Positions 17,218 through 18,238 of a stretch of DNA of 64,000 nt are shown one piece after another. The notes below the pieces were generated by a model. It was given only the letters and a program-made list of their open reading frames with translations. It did not search any database and was not told the origin of the DNA. Position numbers and translations under genes: made by a program. The stretch comes from Escherichia coli (GTDB taxonomy: Bacteria > Pseudomonadota > Gammaproteobacteria > Enterobacterales > Enterobacteriaceae), in NCBI RefSeq assembly GCF_016026235.1, contig NZ_CP065613.1, one strand, 5' to 3'. Position 1 is the stretch's first letter, and every line of letters begins with the position of its first letter.

Positions 17218-17684
17218 ACATCCTCAAGTGATAAGTTAATTAACTCACCAGCAGAGGTGCTAATCTCATGGGTGGTGAGACGCACAGGGTTAGCACTACC
17301 GGTCACTCGAGAACCCGGCCAGCCTTGCGGCTGCCCCGCACGCCTCACCATAATTTGAATGTGGCTGTGCATTACGCATAAAAAAACCGCTTCAGCGCGG
17401 TTATGCGCTCGAGTAACTTTCGGGGTGCTAATCCCGGCACCCGTTTTATGAGGTGCAGGTGCACTATAATTCCACCCGTTCTGGTTTTCAATAGCTACAT
17501 TCAACATTTTCTCTTTCCTTTCATCACCGAAGTGAATTTTGTGATGCGGTGCCTGGTGCCTCCAGGTGACGTTAACCAGTTAACAATTACAGTCGGCTTT
17601 CCCACCCAAAACAATAAGGACTAACATGACTTTTAACTGTGCCGCGTGCGCTTAGCCGCATTCACCGCATCACAAAATTCACTT

Positions 17685-17740
17685 TAAAAAGGGCGGACAT
17701 CAGCCAGCAATTAAACCGATGCCGCCAACTGGTACTTCAC
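17685..17740 (-). ncRNA. dicF: DicF-like small RNA (Qin/Rac-type prophage sRNA) with intrinsic terminator
   Basis: The minus-strand sequence …UGGCGGCAUCGGUUUAAUUGCUGGCUGAUGUCCGCCCUUUUUAAAGUGAAUUUUGUGAUGCGGUGAAUGCGG… closely matches my recollection of the K-12 dicF 3' hairpin, terminator and downstream spacer. Its position downstream of ydfA/ydfB-like genes matches the Qin dicB operon. Confidence 0.45.
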
Positions 17741-17914
17741 ACAGCAATGTCGTTATTTACAACCGGAAGCGCACTCCCACCATTTAAATTTCACAGACAA
17801 GACCGACTCTTTATGAATACCGGAAATGCGCCTTCGTGTTGTGCCCGGTTTTATTTCACCACCTCCGGGCTTTGGTGGTATCTTTACTGAAGTTCTCACA
17901 CAACCAGTAAGGAA

Positions 17915-18238
17915 ATGAATATGCCAACGTATCTCGCCAGAGTAGAACTATATAATGCTGAGCCAGAGGATTACGAAGGGCTTCATAAATATATGCTCTC
18001 ACTAGGATTCAGGAGAACGATCCCCCATGGAGATGGTTCGTATAATCAACTCCCGGACGGAACTTATGTTTCCGAAAAGGGCGGTGATATTTATCAAATT
18101 CGCAGCCAGATATCTGACTATGCAGACCGACTATCCGGGTATCGCGCGTCTGTTTTGTTTGCGAATTCAGTCAATGCGCATGGTATTTATACCCCGCCAA
18201 GACCCGGTGAATATCCTGCACGGCCTTCTGCTTTGTAG
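17915..18238 (+). CDS. Hypothetical 107-aa protein encoded antisense to the leftward early operon (strong RBS TAAGGA)
   Basis: Strong SD 8 nt upstream. It overlaps the convergent ydaG-like gene by 52 nt. Confidence 0.4.
   Translation: MNMPTYLARVELYNAEPEDYEGLHKYMLSLGFRRTIPHGDGSYNQLPDGTYVSEKGGDIYQIRSQISDYADRLSGYRASVLFANSVNAHGIYTPPRPGEYPARPSAL

Follow-up and report, generated by a model that had tools for sequence, protein, structure and literature searches.

Within a 64,000-nt window of the Escherichia coli contig NZ_CP065613.1 (the window being the whole stretch of DNA analysed here), about 700 bases on the minus strand lie between a small ydaG/ydfB-like open reading frame (ORF) and the core of a Rha-family regulator gene, rha. 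This stretch is real non-coding regulatory RNA. Probably it is the untranslated core through which a lambdoid prophage at the Rac site regulates its leftward early operon, of the dicBF type, and in it two known RNA systems follow one another head to tail. It is a chain of four elements whose kinds have all been described before, namely a small RNA of the DicF/KilS type, the RNase III hairpin known from between dicF and dicB, which has STnc100-like features, then IsrK and a C4/CI antisense RNA, and is in this sense largely ordinary. Particular to the window are a rare allele of the small-RNA hairpin, a perfect stem in the processing hairpin, and an isrK-C4-rha cassette in the place of kilR or dicB. 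A first-pass annotation, made by inspection of the letters, had already reported the non-coding stretch; its observation was confirmed, and its interpretation proved largely right but incomplete. The elements, in the direction of transcription, are as follows.

17780→17686, minus strand: KilS-like small RNA, 95 nt by homology (alignment to K-12 KilS, b4833)
17759..17774, minus strand: conserved box GUGCGCUUCCGGUUGU, in the 5' part of the small RNA close to its end
17726→17692, minus strand: hairpin of the DicF-type Rho-independent terminator (GGCGGCAUCGG...CUGAUGUCCGCC), with its U-run at 17690→17686 (terminator scan)
17684→17530, minus strand: conserved long hairpin, 155 nt (inverted-repeat search, minimum free energy (MFE) and centroid folds)
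17684→17663 and 17551→17530, minus strand: the two arms of its 22-bp outer stem, 100% complementary, with 111 nt between them
17566→17552, minus strand: inner CCUGG-AGGCA-CCAGG hairpin
17214..17507, minus strand: annotated N-terminal extension of Rha, 98 codons, overlying the isrK promoter, IsrK, C4 and a2/b2
17491→17463, minus strand: σ70-like isrK promoter, TTGAAA, 17-nt spacer, TATAGT (promoter scan, 10/12 matches)
~17456, minus strand: predicted isrK transcription start
17456→17380, minus strand: IsrK small RNA (Rfam RF01394, 68.5 bits, gathering score 50)
17435→17422 and 17417→17408, minus strand: IsrK decoy sites a1 and b1
17402→17385, minus strand: IsrK terminator, followed by a T run (terminator scan)
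17355→17268, minus strand: C4-type antisense RNA, the equivalent of STnc1160 and P4 CI (Rfam RF01695, full-length model, 78.6 bits, gathering score 45)
17351, minus strand: AUG within C4, counterpart of Gifsy-1 orf45
17313→17303 and 17300→17287, minus strand: C4 recognition loops b' and a'
17265→17256, minus strand: target a2, GAUUAGCACC (direct repeat equating a1 and a2)
17231→17221, minus strand: target b2, UCACUUGAGGA, over the rha Shine-Dalgarno sequence
16668..17213, minus strand: rha, a Rha/antirepressor-type regulator of 181 aa, most likely starting at ATG 17213

Placement of the window at the Rac site follows from Rfam gathering-level matches to flanking small RNAs, compared with K-12, and the minus-strand gene order reproduces the layout of the Qin dicBF operon and of the Rac leftward operon, so that the earlier label of a leftward early operon is correct. 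The features on which this placement rests are listed below.

6704: FnrS (Rfam gathering-level match)
11131: RalA (Rfam gathering-level match)
18853-19272, minus strand: DicA/CI-like helix-turn-helix (HTH) repressor gene
divergent from the HTH repressor gene, plus strand: Cro-like gene
18392-18610, minus strand: DUF1391 (YdfA/YdaF-like) gene
between the DUF1391 gene and the ~700-nt stretch, minus strand: small ydaG/ydfB-like ORF
after the ~700-nt stretch, minus strand, in this order: Rha-family gene, ydaE-like gene, truncated recE
26090: sok (Rfam gathering-level match)
60087: MicC (Rfam gathering-level match)

A 751-nt query around the stretch matches an E. coli O121 chromosome with 100% identity, whereas 80% or more of the query is present in only 63 of 5,426 complete E. 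coli genomes. The predicted folds of the two halves are far more stable than those of shuffled sequences (z = -4.3 and -4.1, with none of 200 shuffles as stable).

In the downstream half of the stretch, IsrK exceeds the 50-bit gathering score and possesses its own promoter and terminator; from the end of the -10 element it is 7 nt to where the Rfam match begins, and the promoter is kept in all 10 alleles of the isrK-C4-rha module that were recovered from related loci. The c4-a1b1 model additionally gave a sub-threshold match at 17469→17417. An internal terminator-like hairpin had been proposed in this region, and the scan indeed located one at 17402→17385, where it represents the IsrK terminator; the imperfect dyads reported alongside it are also present (inverted-repeat pairs 17287-17296/17425-17434 and 17302-17311/17408-17417) and correspond to the C4 antisense loops with the IsrK target sites, an identity that had escaped recognition in both cases. 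The C4 loops are complementary to a1/b1 upstream and to a2/b2 downstream, the latter over the ribosome-binding site, with b2 including the GAGGA that stands 7 nt before ATG 17213. Folding of the read-through transcript predicts a long IsrK:C4 helix resembling the translationally silent “structure A” of Gifsy-1 (PMC4825925).

Outside six short blocks the 10 alleles are near-identical; within the blocks decoy, loop and target vary in concert, in a three-way co-variation. Thus b1, b' and b2 read UUCACUAACG, CGUUAGUGA and UUCACUAACGAGG in one allele and UUCAUCAUGG, CCAUGAUGA and UUCAUCAUGGAGG in another. The cognate duplex of the C4 loops with a2/b2 reaches -29.1 kcal/mol in the window; over 11 alleles the means for this pairing are -27.2 kcal/mol for cognate and -16.9 kcal/mol for non-cognate combinations, and a difference of about -27 against about -17 kcal/mol holds for a2/b2 and a1/b1 alike. 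Allele-specific C4 pairing is the pattern of P1/P7 c4 heteroimmunity. Co-variation and duplex energies together argue strongly, on comparative grounds, that what selection maintains is the RNA-RNA contacts and that rha is regulated at the start codon ATG 17213.

With the immI c4 RNA of P1/P7 and the CI RNA of P4 with its seqA/seqC (Rfam clan CL00128), the module shares the derivation of an antisense RNA from the transcript of its own targets, the two recognition elements a' and b', and the arrangement of a1/b1 upstream and a2/b2 downstream with b2 on the ribosome-binding site; its specificity is allele-dependent, as in P1/P7 heteroimmunity. It differs from these systems in that no icd-like gene intervenes, b2 sits on the Shine-Dalgarno sequence of the antirepressor gene itself, and the upstream targets belong to a separately terminated small RNA, IsrK. 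Another close counterpart is the Gifsy-1 IsrK-orf45(STnc1160)-anrP module (Hershko-Shalev 2016, PMC4825925), for which the switch mechanism has been established and which has the same succession of promoter, 77-nt IsrK with terminator, read-through into a C4-like RNA, and antirepressor gene. However, the Gifsy-1 module lies after a Q gene, whereas the one described here follows a DicF-like small RNA within the leftward early operon; its orf45-equivalent frame runs without a stop, in frame, into rha, and its antirepressor is of the Rha type. By analogy with P1, P4 and Gifsy-1, processing of the antisense RNA from a precursor and repression of the antirepressor by it would be expected here as well.

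A second IsrK-C4 switch is present in the same window at 28414-29247 on the plus strand, directly after a Q-like antiterminator gene (27743-28417) and before four tRNAs (29456-29763). Its layout is that of Gifsy-1 antQ-isrK-anrP, with the following parts.

28414-28442, plus strand: promoter TTGACT-17-CTATAT
28450-28526, plus strand: IsrK
28554-28638, plus strand: C4
28641-28650, plus strand: a2
28672-28681, plus strand: b2 and Shine-Dalgarno sequence
28690, plus strand: start ATG of an ORF6N-type antirepressor

The a/b sequences differ between the two copies, and cross duplexes of -8 and -15.6 kcal/mol are so much weaker than the cognate ones (-23.7 and -29.1 kcal/mol) that the two switches of this one prophage look orthogonal.

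ATG 17507 opens a 279-codon ORF, whose 279-aa product the Prokaryotic Genome Annotation Pipeline (PGAP) lists in the identical O121 genome as a “Rha family” protein. Two Pfam families match this ORF, Phage_pRha at residues 117-200 and Phage_ASH (PF10554) at residues 14-105, the latter with 61 bits; the PHROG 995/518 label of the rha product is transcriptional regulator or antirepressor. The first-pass annotation had pointed to a start at 17507 behind a strong ribosome-binding site and had at the same time considered the region of the first 97 codons more likely to be regulatory RNA than coding sequence. The good Shine-Dalgarno sequence (AAGGA-type) and the long frame are indeed there, but ATG 17507 is probably not the regulated start, since it lies upstream of the IsrK promoter and transcription start while b2 covers the Shine-Dalgarno sequence of ATG 17213. 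The doubt about the N-terminal codons was well founded. They overlie IsrK and C4, and among the 10 alleles an excess of synonymous changes in frame 0 appears only from codon 99 (31% versus 8% in the other frames), the IsrK, C4 and a2/b2 segments showing none (8%, 20% and 14% versus 6-17% in the other frames). The 98-codon extension is therefore most likely not a protein domain, and the Phage_ASH match, despite its score, comes without the signature of amino-acid selection that a coding domain should carry. Phage_ASH also matches the obsolete P4 “cI ORF” (59.7 bits; 8168-8584 of the P4 locus), which overlies the Rfam C4 match, that is, the CI RNA. About 104 N-terminal positions of PHROG 995 likewise appear to be a conceptual translation of IsrK and C4/CI RNA genes, and RefSeq “Rha family” proteins of 279-292 aa carry the same Ash extension. 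The P4 derepression protein epsilon, for which the name Ash is sometimes used, is a member of another family, PF25738.

That the annotated ORF is nevertheless correct, encoding a 279-aa Ash-Rha fusion from ATG 17507 with the RNA matches overlapping true coding sequence (dual coding), appears very unlikely. Its 98 codons stay open in 10 of 10 alleles in spite of the hypervariable blocks, the sole indel being of 3 nt, the Shine-Dalgarno sequence is adequate, and the Ash and PHROG profiles span the extension; moreover, Gifsy-1 orf45, which starts from an AUG inside the 5' end of C4, is translated and coupled to the antirepressor (PMC4825925), and the equivalent AUG 17351 is in frame with rha. The open frame, the Shine-Dalgarno sequence and the orf45 precedent make some translation of the extension region possible, and as no stop follows AUG 17351 a longer Rha isoform is conceivable. 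A ribosome starting at ATG 17507 would, however, have to cross an intrinsic terminator, and the IsrK promoter and start lie downstream of that codon. The synonymous excess is confined to the Rha domain, the variable blocks alter amino acids freely while RNA complementarity is kept, and the Phage_ASH family includes the P4 “cI ORF”, whose product is the CI RNA (PMC4825925, discussion). In enterohaemorrhagic E. coli (EHEC) EDL933, one C4 RNA is abundant and has almost no ribosome footprints (ribosome-coverage value 0.06).

The upstream half of the stretch begins with the putative small RNA, which had been called DicF-like at first. Hairpin, U-run and dicBF-type context support this, and the element lies where DicF would be sought, in a leftward operon controlled by a DicA-type repressor, after ydfA-like (DUF1391) genes, with a Rho-independent terminator at 17726→17686. 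On the other hand, an Infernal scan with the Rfam DicF model (RF00039) produced a full-length match at 17741→17691 of only 28.6 bits (E = 5e-4 in a 900-nt search), under the gathering score of 48 bits, and KilS is closer. The same model gives 76.7 bits for K-12 DicF, 61.1 bits for that of strain EC2257 and 39.1 bits for the K-12 KilS hairpin. As had been suspected, the 5' seed is unlike that of K-12 DicF. In alignments both this seed (xylR) and the 3' loop that pairs with the ftsZ ribosome-binding site, as described in PMC5069750, are replaced in the window, where CUCCG is absent. Whole-sequence RNAduplex predictions against the ftsZ leader did not separate even authentic DicF from shuffled sequences, and counting the longest helix was too crude; as these tests do not discriminate, the claim on ftsZ is confined to the loss of the DicF pairing residues.

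The Rac segment homologous to the window RNA is annotated in K-12 as KilS, a 98-nt, northern-verified small RNA and Hfq RIL-seq partner (Bar et al. 2021, PMC8175672). The 95-nt sequence aligns with KilS over its whole length with 2 differences in the 5' 47 nt, and the 140 nt upstream of the hairpin are ~91% identical to Rac and unlike Qin, while the sequence from the U-run onward is common to both. The two share the chromosomal site between FnrS and MicC, the place after DUF1391/ydaG-like genes, the stem base, the U-run and the hairpin downstream. They differ in the loop and upper stem (GGUUUAAUUGCUGG in the window, CAGUUUUUUUCUUGAAGUUCGG in KilS) and in what follows, which is the isrK-C4-rha module and then a ydaE-like gene in the window but kilR in K-12 Rac; no kilR is present at the locus, and the window RNA is thus not a kilR 5' untranslated region. 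Qin dicBF has in common with the window the order of DicA-like repressor, ydfA-like gene, small RNA, hairpin and cassette, the terminator scaffold, and a downstream spacer with only two differences in its first ~45 nt; the 5' seed and the anti-ftsZ 3' loop are what sets DicF apart. Judged by alignment, the closest characterised relative of the small RNA is KilS of Rac, not DicF, and by position, scaffold and homology it is classified as a member of the DicF/KilS superfamily that is not DicF by the Rfam threshold.

In K-12, the KilS loop AGUUUUUUUCU (~9434-9444 of the K-12 locus) could form an 11-bp helix, including G·U, with positions -11 to -1 of ftsZ, which the window allele cannot form; the measure is crude, as ~10% of shuffles reach the same length. 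Almost every related locus has the conserved box, which lies ~90 nt upstream of the U-run in the Rac type and ~200 nt upstream of it in the Qin type. An RNase III cut upstream of DicF creates the 5' end of a 190-nt DicF (PMC10448788), and by our arithmetic the Qin-type box lies within a few nt of this end. Its consensus, GUGCGCYUCCGGUUGU, marks the 5' ends of KilS-type RNAs and, in the Qin type, approximately the 5' end of the 190-nt DicF. K-12 has a low-count rnc-dependent site at 1418510, a position 8 nt upstream of the first base of KilS.

Relatives of the locus were gathered with an 18-mer taken from the hairpin downstream; searched against viral contigs, it returned about 120 loci. These carry at least 25 small-RNA hairpin alleles on a common GGCGG...CCGCC and U-run scaffold, with a compensatory variant GGUGG...CCACC among them, and the loop is hypervariable. 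The window allele is rare: only 2 of the ~120 loci contain it, and among 5,426 complete E. coli genomes it occurs in 5. About a third of the DicF/KilS-type alleles, this one included, fall under the Rfam DicF cut-off. In a species-level genome scan, true matches of the 18-mer were limited to Escherichia, Shigella and Citrobacter; another ~15 matches, in unrelated metagenome-assembled genomes, were discarded, their number being the chance expectation for an 18-mer in 596 Gb.

These data allow the possibility to be weighed that the DicF-like hairpin serves the leftward operon only as an intrinsic terminator, in the manner of a tL-type attenuator, and that this allele is devoid of any trans-acting small-RNA function. 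The sub-threshold score, the missing ftsZ-pairing residues with CUCCG, the rarity of the allele and a hypervariable loop, which could mean absence of constraint, are all compatible with it. Yet both characterised relatives, DicF and KilS, are Hfq-associated small RNAs, over its 5' 47 nt the window RNA is nearly the same as KilS, and the GGCGG/CCGCC base, the U-run and the processing hairpin are kept in all alleles, including the compensatory GGUGG/CCACC. We regard this explanation as unlikely.

Directly after the U-run begins the long hairpin. The first-pass annotation had described a perfect 23-bp inverted repeat, proposed it as an RNase III substrate, and noted that the spacer after the U-run is almost identical to the K-12 dicF region. 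Complementarity of the repeat is indeed perfect, but it comprises 22 nt and the coordinates given for it were off by 1-6 nt. By our own arithmetic, a perfect 22-mer inverted repeat within 900 nt has a chance expectation of about 1e-8. The spacer is identical to the K-12 dicF-dicB spacer for ~26 nt and then shows one C/T difference. The same hairpin follows DicF in Qin and KilS in Rac, and is found in about 110 viral contigs, with practically every one of the viral-contig loci having it. The Qin dicF-dicB hairpin agrees with it in homologous sequence, outer stem and inner CCUGG-AGGCA-CCAGG hairpin; the stem, perfect over 22 bp in the window, contains two G·U pairs in K-12 Qin, and a bulged A with a G·U in the Rac type. 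Across 59 distinct homologues pairing is retained in 96.4% of stem cells, ~40% with slid partners, and the variation includes seven pairs passing through G·U and two compensatory pairs (U-A→C-G and A-U→G-C) in one lineage. Structure conservation of the long stem is therefore good and its covariation modest.

According to PMC5069750 and PMC9438474, which cite Faubladier 1990, RNase III generates the 3' end of a 72-nt DicF 19 nt past the 53-nt end in Qin; by our count this falls in the 5' arm of the stem. The window duplex, of about two helical turns, is homologous column by column to this Qin spacer site, and RNA-seq of wild type against Δrnc in K-12 contains an rnc-dependent site, 1649470, in the dicF-dicB spacer. 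Homology to the Qin hairpin thus points to the long inverted repeat as a likely RNase III substrate, in agreement with the first-pass annotation; the RNase III hairpin is an already known conserved feature and not a new one. The hairpin also resembles STnc100 (RF02076; 34.3 bits over model positions 21-154, where the gathering score is 47 bits, with five other loci at 28-38 bits), but genuine copies of STnc100, a prophage RNA, are located in late regions, such as behind stx2.

Two further candidates were set aside. A put-like antitermination RNA was dropped as an explanation of the long hairpin, the element being situated after the terminator and not before it, and RNase III cleavage being documented. 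A second RNase III substrate, formed by the box (17774→17759) with an invariant AAGCGCAC in the hairpin (17646-17653), would involve 6-8 complementary nt with imperfect flanks at -22 to -30 kcal/mol; the pairing is absent from MFE folds, and no covariation was found for it.

Similarity between loci stops exactly at the end of the 3' arm of the long hairpin, and the cassette that follows, whether dicB, kilR, isrK-C4-rha or something else, is combined in many ways with the alleles of the small RNA; the hairpin is thus also a mosaic joint. Strain EC2257 has the isrK-C4-rha module ahead of an intact dicB, and at 3110-3193 of its locus PGAP annotates a “partial DicB” within the long hairpin, upstream of the module. 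With this fragment before it and intact dicB after it, the module looks inserted between hairpin and dicB. The sharp break, together with a hairpin that is near-invariant between varied small-RNA alleles and varied cassettes, would also fit conservation of the inverted repeat mainly as DNA, as a linker for the exchange of alleles and cassettes and not for RNA processing. We consider this rather improbable. Changes in the arms keep pairing, down to the compensatory pairs, and the papers cited above report RNase III cleavage in the 5' arm for Qin; besides, the DNA and RNA roles are compatible with each other.

Taken as an untranslated regulatory core, the stretch would operate as follows, with the steps modelled on its characterised homologues. 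Transcription would start from the repressor-controlled leftward promoter or locally at ~17780, and termination at the DicF-type terminator would release a KilS-like, presumably Hfq-binding small RNA. In read-through transcripts the next 155 nt would fold into the hairpin closed by the 22-bp duplex, and cleavage of this duplex by RNase III would free a 3'-extended small RNA and detach the message downstream. IsrK would be produced from a promoter of constitutive appearance that lies within the annotated ORF, with a fraction of transcripts reading through the terminator into C4 and rha. Loops a' and b' of C4 would pair with a2 and b2, and as b2 covers the rha Shine-Dalgarno sequence, rha would stay untranslated while C4 is paired. 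Abundant free IsrK, through its decoys a1 and b1, would titrate C4 or open the inhibitory fold, allowing the Rha-type antirepressor to be made. Of this picture the analysis itself demonstrates the sequence identities, the Rfam memberships, the conserved structure and the co-varying specificity sites, while expression, RNase III cleavage, Hfq dependence and the direction of regulation are taken over from homologues.

Several observations weigh against this picture. The DicF score remains below the Rfam threshold; stem covariation comes from one lineage of three sequences plus wobble changes, most arms being invariant; the rnc-dependent site 1649470 is a low-count one (26 reads); and expression in the present strain is assumed by homology. 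To these are added the points already raised for the 279-codon frame, namely its openness in all alleles, its Shine-Dalgarno sequence and the translated orf45 of Gifsy-1.

It is tempting to speculate further, although we hold the following combination to be decidedly unlikely as a whole, that the constant scaffold of 5' box, GGCGG/CCGCC terminator base, U-run and RNase III hairpin serves as a general docking frame in enterobacterial lambdoid prophages, in which seed and loop alleles of the small RNA are swapped independently of the toxic or antirepressor cassette. The window allele would then be functional, with targets unlike those of DicF and KilS, and the “Ash” frame would be translated on read-through from the leftward promoter, offering an induction-specific route to Rha that bypasses C4.

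The value of these observations lies mainly in annotation, and current understanding is not overturned by them. As about a third of DicF/KilS-type alleles score below the Rfam DicF cut-off, they are missed by annotation pipelines, and DicF copy counts in pathogenic E. coli are likely underestimates. The 279-292-aa RefSeq “Rha family” proteins, PF10554 and the N-terminus of PHROG 995 appear to include or represent translated IsrK/C4 RNA genes, and over-extended Rha ORFs affect both gene starts and the way in which antirepressor (“Bro network”) genes are classed by domain. That heteroimmune-style switching of RNA specificity is common in E. coli prophages is shown by the series of a/b alleles and by the two orthogonal IsrK-C4 switches in one prophage.

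The prophage itself is defective, with insertions of the IS911 and IS421 families and a truncated recE annotated by PGAP in the identical O121 genome; their positions, ~12500-13700 and ~22400-23500, are transferred from the O121 annotation. A hok/sok locus is found at 26090-26414. In the slot taken by sieB in K-12 Rac, the window has on the opposite strand a 107-aa ORF (17915-18238, plus strand), which may be a moron or an exclusion gene; it matches PHROG 8894 (unknown function), lacks a Pfam match and is left without annotation by PGAP in the identical O121 genome.

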